32,000 nt of DNA from Candidatus Hermodarchaeota archaeon (GTDB lineage: Archaea; Asgardarchaeota; Heimdallarchaeia; Hodarchaeales; Hodarchaeaceae), in the NCBI GenBank assembly GCA_048886185.1, contig JBHLKY010000001.1, positions 60,001 to 92,000 on the forward strand, given 5' to 3'. This document shows, one piece after another, positions 10,465 through 16,286 of the stretch. Below the pieces are notes generated by a model. The model did no database searches. It was not told the origin of the DNA and saw only the letters and a list, made by a program, of their open reading frames with translations. How positions within the stretch are numbered: position 1 is the first letter of the stretch; each line of letters begins with the position of its first letter. The translations under genes were made by a program, and so were the position numbers.

Positions 10465-11820
10465 TTATTTACATTTTTTCCTAGCTATATTTGCTGCTAT
10501 CAGAATTGGATCCCAAACAGGAGCAAAGGGCGGAGCATATGAAAGATCAAGCTTCTGGATATCTTCTATTTTCATTCTTGCTGCAAGTGCTGTTGCCAAC
10601 ACATCAATTTTTTTTGCACCTAATGTACTAGGCGCTGTTATTTCAGCTCCTAGAAAAAGGTGACTTTCTGTATCAAATACAAATTGGATTGACATTTTCT
10701 TAGAGCCAGGATAGTAATGAGCAATTTCCTTACTTTCGATAGATATAGTTTGGGCATTATATCCTAGATTCTTTGCCTCTTTCTCAGTTATACCCGTCGT
10801 TGAACAATATAAATCAAGTACTTTATATATAGCTGTACCAACTACGCCTGGAAATGGAAAATCAGTTTCTCCTGAAATAACCGAACCTGCTATACGGCCT
10901 TGTTTGTTGGCAGCTGGAGCTAAAGGGAGATACACATTTTTCTTCAAAATTTGATGATAAGAAGAAGCACAATCCCCTGCAGCATAGACATCTTGAATAT
11001 TTGTTTGCATATATTCATTTGTTTTTATAGCGCCATTGGGGAGAAGATCAAGGGTGGTCTTCTTGAACATGTCTGTTGCTGGAACAACACCGATCGAAAG
11101 TTGAATAAGATTCGTTTCTATAATCTGTCCATCGTCTATGAAAACTTTTAAACGAGCATCAGAAATTGATTCGACTTTCATTACTCGCTTCTCAAGTATG
11201 ATCTTTATTCCATGCTTCTGAAGTTCTGAAGTGACATACTTTTGGCTTTCAGATCGAAAAATTAGTCGAGGTCCGATAACAGTGATTTGCTCTCCTTTTA
11301 TCCCTTGAGCAATGTATGCCTCCAACATTTCTAATCCTATATATCCACCACCTATAATCACAACAGAATCTACATGATTTTTCGCTAAGAATGATTTCAA
11401 ATATTCTGCGTGATTTAAAGTATGAACTTTGAAAATTCGAGGGTGATCAATATCTAAACATGGATCAGATTTCGCTTTGGCACCAGTTGCAATAATTAAA
11501 TAATCATATGATTTACGAAACTCCTTAGCATGCTTGAGATCCTTAACCAGAACAGATTTTGCCTCAAAATTAACTTTTATGACCTCATGGTATAAATGCA
11601 CGGGAATATTTCGATGTTCTTCTAGTTTTTCTTTCGTTAAAGTGATTAATTGATCAAGACTCTTAACCTCATTAGACACATAGTACGGTATCCCACAGGC
11701 ACCATAAGAAACATATCGGTCCTTTTCATATACATCTATTTCCCAGTCAGCATGTGTTTTGCGTATTGCACTTGCAGCACTTAAACCTGCAGGATTACCA
11801 CCAATTACTACAACCCTCAT
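10465..11820 (-). CDS. CoA-disulfide reductase / NADH oxidase family flavoprotein
   Basis: GGNPAG FAD motif, single-Cys active site SYGACGIPY, GGGYIGLE, YAAGDC, LAPAANKQGR and LSYAPPFAPVWDP. Confidence 0.9.
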   Translation of the reverse strand: MRVVVIGGNPAGLSAASAIRKTHADWEIDVYEKDRYVSYGACGIPYYVSNEVKSLDQLITLTKEKLEEHRNIPVHLYHEVIKVNFEAKSVLVKDLKHAKEFRKSYDYLIIATGAKAKSDPCLDIDHPRIFKVHTLNHAEYLKSFLAKNHVDSVVIIGGGYIGLEMLEAYIAQGIKGEQITVIGPRLIFRSESQKYVTSELQKHGIKIILEKRVMKVESISDARLKVFIDDGQIIETNLIQLSIGVVPATDMFKKTTLDLLPNGAIKTNEYMQTNIQDVYAAGDCASSYHQILKKNVYLPLAPAANKQGRIAGSVISGETDFPFPGVVGTAIYKVLDLYCSTTGITEKEAKNLGYNAQTISIESKEIAHYYPGSKKMSIQFVFDTESHLFLGAEITAPSTLGAKKIDVLATALAARMKIEDIQKLDLSYAPPFAPVWDPILIAANIARKKCK

Positions 11821-11862: not shown

Positions 11863-12846
11863 TTAGACAATTTGTCGTTTGATTTCTGAAGTTTCTTTAA
11901 TATGTTCTTGCTTCCAATAGGGATCACGGATGTAGATATATGCCCCATGAGCTGCGAGAGCTCCTTGAGCGGCTGCTAAAGTAGCTAGTTGATAGGGGGT
12001 AACAATATCTCCAGCTGCAAAAACTCCTTCAATATTTGTACGTTGAAGTTGATCCGTCTTTAGGAATTTTCCTTGAAATTCTAATCCTAAATCCTCAAAT
12101 ATCTCAGTATTTGGCTTTAACCCTACTGCAAGGATTACTTTCTCGACATTGAGTTCGATTTTTTCTCTAGTATTTATATCCTCTAAGATCGCCCCTTCTA
12201 CTTTACGTTGTCCAAGAATCTCTTTAATACTGACATTAGTCAGTATTTCGGCCATTTTTTCCTTTTTTACCAGATCTAAATTTTTTTCTGATGCTCTGAA
12301 GTCATTTCGACGGTGGGCCAAATAAATCTTCTGTGCAATGTTATTAAGATCTAAAACGGCATCGATGGCGGTATCACCACCTCCTACAACGAGTACACGA
12401 CGATTGTAAAAAATATCTGGTTCAATTACATAAGGATAAACCCCTCTGTCTTTGCTAGAAAGCTTTGCCTCCCCTGGAATTCCCAATTCATTAGGTTTCA
12501 TTCCTGTAGCTATAATAATAGATTTTGCTTGATAACTCGTTCCTTCAGAAGTTACAACATTAAGGTTCCTATGGATTTTTATAACTCGTTCTTTTATAAG
12601 ATGGACACCGTGATCTGCTGCTTGACGAACCCATTCTGAAACGAGATGTTCAGCACGAATGCGTGGTGTACCTGGGTAGTTGTAAATTTTCTTCTTGGGA
12701 TAAATAGTACTTAAAAGTCCTCCCCATGTGCCCCCCTCGAATACTGCTGTAACTAATCCTTTAAGCGAAGCAATAATTCCAGCAGAGAGTCCCGCTGGCC
12801 CACCTCCAATAACAATAACATCAAAGTTATTAGTTAATCCATTCAT
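11863..12846 (-). CDS. Thioredoxin-reductase-fold flavoprotein lacking CxxC, probably TrxR-type ferredoxin-NADP+ reductase
   Basis: GGGPAG, IYPKKKIYNYPG, IIIATG, GGGDTA, HRRNDFR (NADPH motif) and FAAGD. The CxxC position reads GVYPYVIEPD, and the protein contains no Cys. Confidence 0.8.
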   Translation of the reverse strand: MNGLTNNFDVIVIGGGPAGLSAGIIASLKGLVTAVFEGGTWGGLLSTIYPKKKIYNYPGTPRIRAEHLVSEWVRQAADHGVHLIKERVIKIHRNLNVVTSEGTSYQAKSIIIATGMKPNELGIPGEAKLSSKDRGVYPYVIEPDIFYNRRVLVVGGGDTAIDAVLDLNNIAQKIYLAHRRNDFRASEKNLDLVKKEKMAEILTNVSIKEILGQRKVEGAILEDINTREKIELNVEKVILAVGLKPNTEIFEDLGLEFQGKFLKTDQLQRTNIEGVFAAGDIVTPYQLATLAAAQGALAAHGAYIYIRDPYWKQEHIKETSEIKRQIV

Positions 12847-12883: not shown

Positions 12884-13981
12884 TCATTCTAGGTCTGATA
12901 ATGATAGTTTAATATCCATGGCATGTTCTGATAATCTTTCCTGAACATAAGTTCCCGATAATCTCCAGATATTACGAATTCTTCCATGTTTATCAATCAA
13001 GAAGGTTGTTCTTTCTGCCATTCCCGTTTCATTGTTTAAACAACCATAATTAGCTGAAATTTCTTTCTTTAGATCTGATATCAAGGGAAATGGAAGATGT
13101 AGACTATTTCTAAAAGATTGGAGATCTGAGACATCATCTACAGAAACTCCAATAACCTCTACATCAAGTTTCTTAAGTTCGTTATAGGCGTCTCGAAATC
13201 CTTCTGCTTCGATAATACATCCAGGAGTGTTTGCTTTAGGATAAAAGAATAGGGCAAGAGTTTTCTTGTTTTGAAAATCTGATAGTCTTATTGTTTCATT
13301 TTTATCTGTTTGAGCAATGAAGTTAGGAGCAAGATCACCAATTTCAAGGAAACCACTTTGCGTTTCAACTTTCTTGAGGGATTGTGTATCAGTTGCATAA
13401 ACTTCTTTAATTCTTTCCCAGAATGGTAGTTCTACATTTGTACTTAACATCATTGGTAGGCATAATGGGCAATCCTCCTCATGAGGCCTTCCAATAATAG
13501 GTGAAGCTACATGAAACCATGGATAAATGACATTTGAATGTAGTTCTTTTTCAAATGCTCGGACTTTTGGGTCGTTCAATCGTTCCCAAGGAGTTTCCTG
13601 ATATTTTTCATCTAACAACTGTGAAACACCTTTGAAAAGATTATTTATAACTTTCATTGCTTCAGTATCAACATCTCTCTCCCTGAATGCTGCACAAATA
13701 ATGTTTTCCGATCTTGTGTAATAAAATAACAGTTTTAAGGATCCAATACTCATACTTTGGACTTTTGTTTCTGATTCAGCAAACATCCCTGGCATTGTGG
13801 AGACAGCTGCTAAGAAAGCTGTTAGAAGTTCATCTTTTTTCCCTAACATCCCGCAGACATTTCCCCAACATCTCGAATAGATCGGTTGTCCTGAATCTTG
13901 ATAGATAATTAAGTATTCTAATTTAATTGTCCTGATCTGTTTCTTTCTTCTAAGAAAATTTACGATGGACCCAAGTTTCAT
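12884..13981 (-). CDS. Fusion: N-terminal longin-like domain, Cys/His-rich linker, C-terminal BCP/PrxQ peroxiredoxin
   Basis: Residues ~211-365 carry FFYPKANTPGC (PxxxTxxC), VIGVSVD, FPLISD and ERTTFLID. Residues ~20-155 show the longin beta-beta-alpha-beta-beta-beta-alpha-alpha pattern (EYLIIYQDSGQPIYSR, ELLTAFLAAVS, LKLLFYY, NIICAAF). The Prx call is strong; the longin call is by pattern only. Confidence 0.8.
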   Translation of the reverse strand: MKLGSIVNFLRRKKQIRTIKLEYLIIYQDSGQPIYSRCWGNVCGMLGKKDELLTAFLAAVSTMPGMFAESETKVQSMSIGSLKLLFYYTRSENIICAAFRERDVDTEAMKVINNLFKGVSQLLDEKYQETPWERLNDPKVRAFEKELHSNVIYPWFHVASPIIGRPHEEDCPLCLPMMLSTNVELPFWERIKEVYATDTQSLKKVETQSGFLEIGDLAPNFIAQTDKNETIRLSDFQNKKTLALFFYPKANTPGCIIEAEGFRDAYNELKKLDVEVIGVSVDDVSDLQSFRNSLHLPFPLISDLKKEISANYGCLNNETGMAERTTFLIDKHGRIRNIWRLSGTYVQERLSEHAMDIKLSLSDLE

Positions 13982-14611
13982 TTTTTCTTTACATCCTTTA
14001 AAATATGTTTATTAATATTATTAGAATCGTAATGAAGCGCTCGTTGGGGAAGTATCTTATGAACACGATTTTAAAATCATTGGCATACAAATTGGACAAT
14101 TTTCTTTATGATTATCTCCATTAAATGGTAAGGTGCGATAAAACCAAGGATGCATGACTTTCTTCAATAATTCCCTTTCAAATGAGATAACCATGGGATC
14201 ATTTAGTCGATCCCAAGGAGTTTTTTGAAAATCTTCGTCAATTAATTGTGTAATGTCTTGGAAAAGATCATTTATAACCCCCATTGTGTTTTTATTCACA
14301 TCTTCCTCTGGAAAGGCTAGGCATATGATATTTTCTGATTCTGTGTAACAGAATAACAATTTTAATGATCCAATACTTATATTCTGGACTTTTTCATTTT
14401 CAGATTCAGCAAACATCCTTGGCATAGTGGAGACAGCTGCTAAAAATGCTGTCATCAATTCATCTTTTTTTCCCAACATCCCACAAACATTCCCCCAACA
14501 CTTCGCATAGATTGGTTGTCCTGAATTTTGACAAATAATAACATATTCCAACTTAATTTGGTCAAGGTGTCTCTTTTTCTTAAAAACATCCATTAATGAA
14601 TTAATTTTCAT
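13445..14611 (-). repeat. Tandem gene duplication (13445-13981 vs 14057-14611)
   Basis: Similarity is visible at DNA level, e.g. gattcagcaaacatcc.tggcat.gtggagacagctgctaa and ttcatcttttttc occur in both copies. Confidence 0.9.
14057..14611 (-). CDS. Stand-alone longin-like protein, paralog of the N-terminal half of 12884..13981
   Basis: Hand alignment gives about 113 identities over ~180 aa to the fusion N-terminus, including the identical stretch CWGNVCGMLGKKDEL and H-x3-CPxCxPM. Confidence 0.8.
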   Translation of the reverse strand: MKINSLMDVFKKKRHLDQIKLEYVIICQNSGQPIYAKCWGNVCGMLGKKDELMTAFLAAVSTMPRMFAESENEKVQNISIGSLKLLFCYTESENIICLAFPEEDVNKNTMGVINDLFQDITQLIDEDFQKTPWDRLNDPMVISFERELLKKVMHPWFYRTLPFNGDNHKENCPICMPMILKSCS

Positions 14612-14866
14612 TTATTCATCTCTTCTATCAGAGTCCTTGAATAAAATTCTGTCCTATCTTTAATAATACATTAATTTGTTGAAATAAATCTTTTTCAATA
14701 TGAAATTCGTTATCATTCAGAAATTCATAACAAGCTAAATGATTAAGCTCATGAAGTTGCTTTAGCTATTTTAGACTAATAAAATATTGCTACAATTACA
14801 AGAGGCATACTGAAAAGGCATTTTTCGTCCCAATTTAATTTTAAGAAAAATATTAAGGTGAAAAAT

Positions 14867-15004
14867 TTGGCAATATGGGAATGTAGAATGTGTGGATACA
14901 CATACGATGACGAAGATCAAGGGGTTCCTTTTGAAGAGCTTCCTGATGATTGGATATGTCCTTGGTGTAAAGCTCCTAAGAAATACTTTGATAAGTATGA
15001 ATAA
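14867..15004 (+). CDS. rub: Rubredoxin, short 45 aa type
   Basis: Hand translation MAIWECRMCGYTYDDEDQGVPFEELPDDWICPWCKAPKKYFDKYE*, with CxxCG...FEELPDDWxCPxC. TTG start about 6 nt after AAGGTGA; in-frame GTG at 14858 is an alternative. Absent from the ORF track. Confidence 0.95.
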   Translation: MAIWECRMCGYTYDDEDQGVPFEELPDDWICPWCKAPKKYFDKYE

Positions 15005-15026
15005 AAGCTTTTTTCCTTTAGCTATT

Positions 15027-15590
15027 TCAGTTTTCATTATATTTATTATAATAAATGAACTCATGTAACAACTTGCGTTTAGGACGTTCTGCCTCATTTT
15101 TTCGTTGATGATCTTTAAAGAAGTCAGGAATTATGTTTGATTTTTTTCCAACAATAATAAGAGTAATTAAAAGCATTTCTTCAGGAATATCAAGTAGTTG
15201 TTTAACTTTTTCTGGGAAAAAACCTGCTATTGGATGAGCAACTAAACCTCTTTCAGTTAAGTATAAGATCATCAACGCTGTTGCCATTCCCGTATCAAAA
15301 AGAAAGTACTGACGGTTTTTTATTATACAGTCTAAGTCTGATTTAGAAAATACAGCAATAATTAGACTGGCAGCTTTTGCCCATGCGTTCCCATTAGTAA
15401 GTGTTTCGTCCTTTACACGAGTGAGTAATTCTTTCTCATAAATAAAAATAAACCTCCATGGCTGATTATTAGAACAAGATGGAGCTAATTGAGCTATTAG
15501 TGCAGTTTCTTCAATCAATTCTCTTGTAATCTCTACTGGTTCCAATGCCCTATAAGCTCTTCTCCTTTTAACTAAATTTTCAAAATTCAT
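15027..15590 (-). CDS. Nitroreductase family (FMN-dependent) protein
   Basis: RRRAYRA, APSCSNNQPWRF, FDTGMA, RGLVAHPIAGF and C-terminal RPKRK. GGTGA RBS upstream. Confidence 0.92.
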   Translation of the reverse strand: MNFENLVKRRRAYRALEPVEITRELIEETALIAQLAPSCSNNQPWRFIFIYEKELLTRVKDETLTNGNAWAKAASLIIAVFSKSDLDCIIKNRQYFLFDTGMATALMILYLTERGLVAHPIAGFFPEKVKQLLDIPEEMLLITLIIVGKKSNIIPDFFKDHQRKNEAERPKRKLLHEFIYYNKYNEN

Positions 15591-15782
15591 TACTTTTTCA
15601 CCATTTAAAACAGATTTCTGGTAAGTTTACAATTGTAAAAATGCTTTCAAGTATTTTTACTTAAACATTACCTCTGAAAATCGCAAAGAAGGTATTTAAG
15701 ATCTGAATAAGTTTGATAAAACATCATGAGTTAAGATAAAAAAAGGTATTTTCATTCTTTAAATCTAATAGAAGTGATAATT

Positions 15783-16286
15783 GTGGGAAAAACAGAAGAG
15801 AAACTAATGGCTGCATTTGCTGGGGAATCCCAAGCGAATAGAAAGTATCTTGCTTTTGCGAAAAAAGCGGAAAAAGAAGGTTTTAACCAAGTAGCTCGTG
15901 TATTTCGGGCTGCGGCGGCTGCAGAAACTGTACATGCACATGCACATTTACGTGTGTATGGAGGTATTAAATCTACTCTTGAAAATATTCAAGAAGCTAT
16001 TGGAGGAGAACACTATGAATTTGTTTCCATGTATCCAGAATTCATAGATATAGCTAAAGAAGAGGGTAGAAAAGCAGCAGAACGAAGTTTTGATCTAGCA
16101 AGACAGGTGGAAATCATCCATCATGAGCTTTATTCTAAAGCCTTAAAGGCGGTTGAAGAGGGAAAAGATCTGTCTGAAACATCATTGTTCGTCTGTAATG
16201 TCTGTGGTTACACCTGTGAAAATGAGATTCCAGATATTTGTCCTGTATGTGGAGCGTCTCACGAACGATTTACTGAGATTGAATAA
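15783..16286 (+). CDS. rbr: Rubrerythrin
   Basis: AFAGESQANRKYLAFA, AAAETVHA, GEHYE...MYP, EIIH and C-terminal rubredoxin-like CNVCGY...CPVCG. GTG start at 15783; the ORF track uses 15774. Confidence 0.95.
   Translation: MGKTEEKLMAAFAGESQANRKYLAFAKKAEKEGFNQVARVFRAAAAAETVHAHAHLRVYGGIKSTLENIQEAIGGEHYEFVSMYPEFIDIAKEEGRKAAERSFDLARQVEIIHHELYSKALKAVEEGKDLSETSLFVCNVCGYTCENEIPDICPVCGASHERFTEIE

Follow-up and report, generated by a model that had tools for sequence, protein, structure and literature searches.

In eukaryotic trafficking, and in the 'eukaryotic signature' proteins of Asgard archaea, longin domains are usually regarded as modules that bind proteins and no metal, and the gene pair described here raises the question of what a cluster of cysteines and histidine is doing on this fold, and what it might have to do with a peroxiredoxin fused to one of the two copies. 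The genes, which we call A and B, lie on the minus strand of a 32,000-nucleotide stretch of a Hodarchaeales contig (hereafter the window), the host order being the archaeal order closest to eukaryotes. Gene A (14057-14611) is an open reading frame (ORF) of 184 codons that encodes a stand-alone longin-fold protein carrying the Cys/His site, while gene B (12884-13981; 365 codons), 75 nucleotides further on, joins a longin-like domain to a BCP/PrxQ peroxiredoxin. Sequence comparison across the family shows that the core of the site consists of three invariant cysteines and one movable histidine or cysteine ligand, and we consider it very probable that this cluster is a metal site, with zinc as the most likely metal and single best guess. 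The overall explanation that we favor, a metal-site longin pair acting as the redox-responsive partner of a 1-Cys peroxiredoxin, is a tentative one that we rate somewhat short of probable.

The first 186 residues of B (13424-13981) are a paralog of A. BLASTP aligned residues 1-182 of A with residues 1-181 of B at 113 of 182 identities (62%; E 2e-87), in line with the ~63% counted by hand in the original prediction, which covered 13445-14611 (all of A plus residues 1-179 of B) and used the residue numbers of B. The motifs that it ascribed to both copies, CWGNVC, IIC and H-x3-C-P-x-C-x-P-M, are indeed present. As checked by codon, C38-W-G-N-V-C43 lies at 14483-14500 in A, leading from the end of strand beta2 into the first turn of helix alpha1, and at 13853-13870 in B, and the tail motif is H168-x3-C172-P-x-C175 in A (14087-14110) and H167-x3-C171-P-L-C174 in B (13460-13483); C38 and C43 are numbered alike in both proteins, and C96, H167, C171 and C174 of B are equivalent to C97, H168, C172 and C175 of A. 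The 'three further Cys' of the stand-alone copy were also correctly seen, since A has eight cysteines (27, 38, 43, 88, 97, 172, 175 and 183) versus five in the N-terminal domain of B, those specific to A being C27, C88 and the penultimate C183 (14063-14065), which alignment places in 15 of 15 A-type orthologs. Judged from sequence, the retention of cysteines between two paralogs that are 62% identical carries no significant signal in itself; it is the distant relatives that supply one.

The fold of the shared domain was assigned from AlphaFold2 models of A (predicted local distance difference test score, pLDDT, 84.8) and B (pLDDT 85.9; predicted template modeling score, pTM, 0.65). DSSP assignment of the modeled elements (E23-28, E33-38, H42-67, E75-80, E83-89, E94-101, H107-127 and H139-157) gives the beta1-beta2-alpha1-beta3-beta4-beta5-alpha2(-alpha3) topology of a longin domain. 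When the A model was compared with the entire PDB by VIA-align, the best match was synbindin (Z 11.6; 122 residues; root-mean-square deviation 2.9), and sedlin (Z 10.3; 133 residues), AP2 mu, VAMP7, Sec22, Lst4 and a Lokiarchaeal longin (8yqg; Z 9.1) were matched as well. Nearly all of the top 25 rows were longins, which scored Z 8-11.6 and covered residues 20-160, versus Z 6.5-8.2 and residues 16-130 only for roadblock domains; a roadblock identity for the N-terminal domain of A and B was dropped, these matches being shorter and lower-scoring. Foldseek (E 1e-4 to 1e-3) and the ESM Atlas likewise pointed to longins. In sequence the relation is remote: the Pfam model Fuz_longin_1 (PF19036) stayed below its gathering threshold of 26.1 bits with both A (19.4) and B (16.3), NCBIfam models gave no match to A, none of the Pfam and NCBIfam models for iron proteins fitted A or the N-terminal domain of B, and a PDB sequence profile search returned chance matches only (E > 0.1). 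The same Pfam model was matched at E <= 0.01 by 20 of 42 family members (best E 1.5e-6), however, and these matches together with the fold matches bear out the original prediction of a longin subfamily. We conclude that the predicted fold backs the longin assignment, which does not amount to formal membership of PF19036. A basic, amphipathic-looking helix rich in Lys and Arg opens both proteins (residues 2-16; 14564-14608 in A and 13934-13978 in B), modeled with pLDDT 70-76 in A and <50 in B, and could be a membrane- or partner-binding element.

Word-indexed searches found close relatives only, all in metagenome-assembled genomes (MAGs) labeled Heimdall or Hodarchaeales; the orthologs comprise 14 A-type proteins (182-184 residues) and 12 full-length B-type proteins (361-369 residues). 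When 1.84 billion cluster representatives were searched exhaustively with HMMER, 46 proteins reached E <= 1e-3, the most distant at ~22% identity. A profile search of 400 Asgard genomes gave matches in 230 of them, the strong full-length ones falling in two classes of the phylum, one of which is the class of the window. All named family members come from Asgard MAGs, and on the strength of these searches the family is Asgard-restricted. Its members are currently annotated as 'hypothetical protein' or plain 'peroxiredoxin'.

How far the cluster extends through this family was asked of relatives at 22-37% identity, a comparison by which, according to the original prediction, its six-residue cluster could be refuted. 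The cluster survives in reduced form. Within the close A/B clade C38, C43, H168, C172 and C175 (numbering of A) are invariant and C97 nearly so, being Ser in one member (P0010). Once distant homologs of as little as 22% identity are aligned, invariance is limited to G31, (P33), C38, C43, (F56) and C171/172. C96/97, which is confined to the close clade and replaced by V, I, A or M in distant homologs as well as by the Ser of P0010, was rejected as a site ligand. The N-terminal Cys pair occurs in 80 of 83 family sequences, 78 of these 80 also have a C-terminal ligand pair, and two family sequences lack both halves of the site. The 78 tails divide into HxxxCxxC (35), H-x(n)-C (6) and C-x3-9-C (37); three sequences with C-x3-C tails (P0042, P0047 and L026_x) escaped the regular expression and were added by eye from the alignment. 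The tail thus exists in two versions, one with a His four residues before C172 and usually C175 as well (HxxxCPxC), the other lacking C175 and with its Cys placed three to nine residues ahead of C172. The fourth ligand is either His or Cys, never both; outside the A/B clade, H168 and C175 give way in other clades to a Cys at -4 to -7 relative to C172. Many relatives have CP only, the second Cys of CPxC being absent. A sister subfamily found throughout the class, typified by the paralog at locus L003, has no tail Cys and instead carries C-x5-C-K-x-[H/R]-P-D-H at the same beta2-alpha1 junction.

Three invariant cysteines, a fourth ligand that moves and alternates between His and Cys, and a local His/Asp variant argue for a tetrahedral metal site and not for a disulfide pattern, and the metal-site reading is further supported by the fact that ligand migration of this kind is typical of structural metal sites. 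In the AlphaFold2 models C38 closes strand beta2, C43 sits in the first turn of alpha1, and C174 of B lies just before a short helix that starts at residue 175, with a mean pLDDT of 84 over the tail motif (residues 171-180). Taken with the alignments, this suggests that a metal, probably zinc, pins the C-terminal tail to the beta2-alpha1 junction. Where the original prediction had left a choice between a Zn, an Fe-S and a disulfide switch, the movable fourth ligand thus favors the metal site and disfavors the disulfide.

In a maximum-likelihood tree, A and the N-terminal domain of B each form a monophyletic clade, and the two clades are sisters (98/96 support), so the tandem pair goes back to a single duplication in this lineage. 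A linker helix, L-P-x-W-x-R-I-K, is retained in B and in most unfused relatives but was lost from A, and the A clade gained the invariant C183. Other BCP fusions (P0051, P0095 from Heimdall LC_3, and P0069) branch elsewhere among unfused members, which puts BCP fusions in at least two separate branches of the tree; either the fusion is old and was lost several times, or it has more than one origin. Two neighboring genes fall outside the family: the one upstream of the P0069 fusion (locus L012) and the one overlapping a homolog, P0034 (locus L007).

The peroxiredoxin half of B (residues 214-337; 12971-13342, minus strand) matches Pfam AhpC-TSA (PF00578) at E 2.8e-37, and its peroxidatic cysteine, C255 (13217-13219), lies within P-K-A-N-T-P-G-C. 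T252, C255 and R324 are invariant in 17 fusions, and the domain has the features of BCP/PrxQ enzymes, namely the AhpC-TSA fold, the PxxxTxxC motif and the conserved Arg. It is not an atypical 2-Cys enzyme: the position five residues after the peroxidatic cysteine is Glu260 and not a resolving Cys. The same position is E, Q or R in all four fused BCP lineages, whereas the genome's unfused BCP retains both cysteines, in C-T-K-E-A-C (C44/C49), and another cysteine of B, C314, is conserved in the close clade only. Their sequences thus mark the fused BCPs as 1-Cys enzymes within their own domain, and a fused BCP without a resolving Cys of its own invites a thiol or reductant from elsewhere.

One candidate source needs no metal at all. 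The cysteines of the longin domains could form a dithiol/disulfide relay that substitutes for thioredoxin, in which C171/C174, C38/C43 or C183 of A resolves the Cys255 sulfenate and the flavin of a Cys-free, TrxR-like (thioredoxin reductase-like) enzyme encoded just downstream then directly reduces the disulfide so formed. The disappearance of the resolving Cys from all fused BCPs and its retention in the unfused one would be expected of such a relay; CPxC resembles glutaredoxin and thioredoxin active sites and is placed just before a helix, C183 was gained on a flexible C-terminal end, and the operon ties the pair to an NAD(P)H flavoprotein without a dithiol of its own. Disulfide reduction without a CxxC is reported for the TrxR-like enzyme YpdA/Bdr. 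We nonetheless regard a metal-free relay as quite improbable, given that the invariant Cys trio with its conserved His/Cys fourth position fits a metal better, that the many relatives with CP only lack the second Cys, that the site is kept in genomes and loci with no peroxiredoxin or reductase nearby, and that the L003-type proteins exchange the tail cysteines for His/Asp, which are incapable of forming disulfides.

The downstream enzyme is encoded at 11863-12846 (minus strand), 37 nucleotides after B, and is a Pyr_redox_2 protein of 327 residues with no cysteine whatsoever. It does not qualify as a canonical TrxR, scoring 236 against the 343-bit cut-off of TIGR01292 and having P-Y-V-I in place of CATC, and a canonical TrxR (346 bits) is encoded elsewhere in the genome. 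Its nearest PDB entries are TrxRs and TrxR-like ferredoxin-NADP reductases (2zbw, 6gas and 3lzw), and instead of a TrxR it is probably an NAD(P)H reductase of the ferredoxin/rubredoxin type. The gene is adjacent to the pair, and its product 86-89% identical, in all A/B genomes; of the 21 genomes of the genus, 16 have an ortholog of 72-89% identity, and orthologs of ~50% identity are present in a second family of the class. Even where there is no fusion, in genomes G060 and G077, an A-type gene stands directly upstream of the flavoprotein gene: in G060 (locus L034, G060:C74, 3838-5724) the order is rubredoxin, A-type longin (183 residues, ending R-S-C-S and so sharing the penultimate Cys) and TrxR-like flavoprotein, with no peroxiredoxin fusion between them. 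We consider the flavoprotein a likely operon partner of A and B.

The remainder of the neighborhood is an oxidative-stress island. Downstream, a CoA-disulfide reductase/NADH oxidase-like flavoprotein (10465-11820, minus strand) is the last gene of the string, whose gaps are 75, 37 and 42 nucleotides; this gene is optional, being present in loci L013 and L035 and absent from L015 and L028. On the other side, a small rubredoxin with two C-x2-C knuckles (14858-15004, plus strand; an ORF of ~45-48 residues) diverges from A and is followed by a nitroreductase (15027-15590, minus strand), a rubrerythrin (15774-16286, plus strand) and a DUF547 protein. The order rubrerythrin-nitroreductase-rubredoxin/A-B-flavoprotein is kept in L013, L015 and L028, where a called rubredoxin 79-84% identical to that of the window occupies the same place, and coordinates show the same A-B-flavoprotein order in genomes G068, G075 and G076. 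The rubredoxin probably starts at a TTG at 14867, giving M-A-I-W-E-C as in its orthologs, and two ORFs that overlap it (14771-15097, minus, and 14892-15068, plus) look spurious. In a related genome (locus L037, 7514-8742) a flavodiiron-type protein beside the rubredoxin appears split into ORFs of 139 and 199 residues, which may be a frameshift or an assembly error.

This setting raises a second alternative, that the site is a redox-active iron center (rubredoxin-like Fe, [2Fe-2S] or [4Fe-4S]) and that A and the N-terminal domain of B carry electrons from the Cys-free flavoprotein to the fused peroxiredoxin, or to other reductases of peroxide or oxygen in the island. The flavoprotein is related to ferredoxin-NADP reductases whose substrates are small iron-sulfur proteins, an A-type gene directly precedes its gene even without a peroxiredoxin, and rubredoxin and rubrerythrin are at hand. 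Sets of three Cys and one His, or of four Cys, with C-x5-C and Cys-Pro are also found in Fe-S sensors and ferredoxins, as seen in IscR, SoxR, WhiB and mitoNEET. An iron center is still unlikely in our estimation. The fourth ligand drifts in position and chemistry (His, Cys, local His/Asp), which Zn sites tolerate better than Fe-S sites; there is no known mechanism by which a one-electron carrier reduces a peroxiredoxin sulfenate; the adjoining rubredoxin is a more obvious substrate for the flavoprotein; and the majority of the family is encoded away from any reductase.

Other members of the family occupy varied surroundings. About 30 kb before the window, at L003 (G000:C1:28388-31747), the sister-type longin (156 residues, C-x5-C-K-L-H-P-D-H, no tail Cys) lies between an NROR-like flavoprotein of 372 residues and a 1-Cys peroxiredoxin; this trio recurs together with a rubredoxin in G060 and G076, and in G072 an L003-type gene is found inside the island. 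In the f31 clade (L016-L023) a Cys-form member keeps the same neighbors, an acyl-CoA dehydrogenase upstream and a convergent 590-residue protein without a Pfam match, but these genomes are close kin and the shared gene order may not be meaningful. At L007 (6001-9812) the His-form relative P0034 (214 residues) follows a DUF302 gene, overlaps by 4 nucleotides the gene of a 282-residue, membrane-looking protein and lies ~2 kb from two Arf/Ras-type small GTPase genes. The window itself contains no GTPase gene.

With the site present family-wide and mostly outside redox contexts, the third alternative is an inert structural Zn: the longins would only dimerize, scaffold or target, placing the peroxiredoxin, for example by binding a small GTPase, or the membrane through the basic N-terminal helix, and the Cys cluster would have no redox role. 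Structural Zn is the commonest reason for motifs of this type, longin domains are classical GTPase- and coat-binding platforms (PMC10933270), and one relative, as noted, is near two GTPase genes. Yet this account leaves unexplained why fused BCPs have systematically lost the resolving Cys, why extra cysteines were gained in the A/B clade and why A-type and flavoprotein genes are constantly adjacent, and we hold it to be unlikely.

Whether the two longin domains meet was addressed by ESMFold2 prediction of B(1-186) with A and two Zn, which gave ipSAE interface scores of 0.63, 0.51 and 0.52 (overall 0.52) as against 0.00 in three controls, with at least 50% of contacts agreeing between runs and a partner pLDDT of at least 72. 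This lends weak support to pairing of A and B through their longin domains. The heterodimer that the original prediction proposed, in which only one partner carries the peroxidase, has this complex score in its favor and goes no further than this grade.

In the explanation that we favor, C38-x4-C43 from the beta2-alpha1 junction and two ligands from the C-terminal tail, C172 with either H168 (leaving C175 spare) or an upstream Cys, would form a four-ligand site in which a metal, most likely Zn, holds the tail on the longin core. A duplication in one Hodarchaeales genus would have produced the stand-alone A and a B fused to a 1-Cys BCP, co-transcribed with the Cys-free flavoprotein in the rubredoxin/rubrerythrin island. 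A and B would then probably pair through their longin domains, and the thiolate-rich site would probably serve as a redox-responsive partner of the peroxiredoxin in one of two ways: the Cys255 sulfenate might oxidize the site and release the metal, as in switches of the RsrA/Hsp33 type, or the longin site might provide the missing resolving thiol. Such redox coupling is plausible because of the spare cysteines (C175, and C183 in A), the motif resembling that of redox-sensing anti-sigma factors, the missing resolving Cys and the constant association with a dithiol-free NAD(P)H flavoprotein. Going further, the metal-thiolate longin might be a new kind of redox partner, either a 'longin-redoxin', the physiological acceptor of the flavoprotein and the reductant or resolving module of the 1-Cys peroxiredoxin, or a Zn switch driven by the peroxiredoxin, which would let a GTPase-regulatory fold of eukaryote type signal exposure to peroxide by a change of conformation; we regard this extension as doubtful.

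Several observations weigh against this explanation. The flavoprotein gene occurs without an adjoining longin gene in three loci of the same genus (L037, L038 and L041), and most of the distant homologs lie in non-redox surroundings, with no redox partner shared among them (neighborhoods L007-L012 and L016-L029); in these distant members, and possibly in A and B too, the site may be purely structural. We infer the nearness of the ligands in the fold, and sequence does not separate Zn from Fe or Fe-S. Placement of the peroxiredoxin relative to the longin domain is not confidently predicted in the B model, as its pTM indicates, and the score of the A-B complex falls in a range where passes are often wrong and may reflect memory of the longin dimers that have been solved.

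The comparisons show the paralogy, the longin fold, the conservation and migration of the ligands, the synteny of the operon and the absence of a resolving Cys from every fusion; binding of a metal, its identity as Zn, dimerization and redox coupling are inferred from them. A whole Asgard longin family carries a conserved Cys3-His/Cys4 site, and in Hodarchaeales 1-Cys peroxiredoxins and an NAD(P)H flavoprotein of an oxygen-defense island have repeatedly been joined to this family; the fusion ties a eukaryote-type regulatory fold to a peroxide-removing enzyme of oxidative-stress defense. If the site is redox-active, it would connect oxygen stress directly, at the biochemical level, with a regulatory fold that eukaryotes inherited, and would be a new route of recycling or sensing through a peroxiredoxin. 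Even if it holds structural Zn only, it defines an unannotated family, recognizable by C-x4-C where beta2 meets alpha1 together with HxxxCPxC or C-x(n)-CP in the tail.

Among known systems, the closest in fold are the TRAPP longins (synbindin/TRAPPC4 and sedlin/TRAPPC2) and the first longin of Mon1, Fuz and HPS1 (PF19036), to the last of which the weak sequence matches recur. These proteins also function as homo- or heterodimers, but have no known Cys/His cluster, to which A and B add the tail just described; unlike them, the A/B locus has no evident GTPase partner, and one copy is fused to a peroxiredoxin. The original prediction had contrasted the cluster with canonical longins lacking a conserved metal site, a contrast that needs one caveat, as folliculin (FLCN)/Lst7 combines a longin with conserved Cys/His proposed to bind Zn (HxCx2H ... 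Cx2C; PMC3438538, PMC4703059). The FLCN longin is a structural match of A (6nzd_H, Z 8.0), and the PDB sequence profile search detected no sequence relation to it. The FLCN ligands are all N-terminal, whereas those of A and B are split between the beta2-alpha1 junction and the tail; A and B have C-x4-C and HxxxCxxC and no DENN domain, the chain ending or running into the peroxiredoxin, and therefore do not belong to the FLCN/Lst7 type.

[quoted passage not shown] The ZAS arrangement (RsrA, RslA, ChrR) of HxxxCxxC with a distal ligand is found in A, B and 35 of 83 family sequences, and an oxidative-stress setting is common to both. The ZAS domain, however, is a bacterial helical anti-sigma fold while A and B are longins, archaea have no sigma factor, and Pfam zf-HC2 gave no match to A or B at E <= 1, so the likeness is one of functional analogy only and not membership. 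By superfamily A and B belong with the Asgard longin/roadblock proteins (the dimeric Lokiarchaeal Roadblock-Longin 8yqg and the asCOG families), and share in the same phylum-level expansion, which involved extensive domain shuffling (10.1101/2020.10.19.343400; PMC10933270). Our literature search on these proteins found no metal site or peroxiredoxin fusion described, and searches on longin with peroxiredoxin and longin with Hodarchaeales found no description of the A/B family, its site or its fusion. Hybrid peroxiredoxins that are fused to their reductant include peroxiredoxin-glutaredoxin fusions and AhpC/AhpF-type systems. Like these, the A/B locus brings a peroxiredoxin together, in one chain or operon, with a partner domain rich in Cys and with an NAD(P)H flavoprotein; unlike them, its partner domain is a longin and not a thioredoxin fold, and its flavoprotein has no redox-active dithiol.

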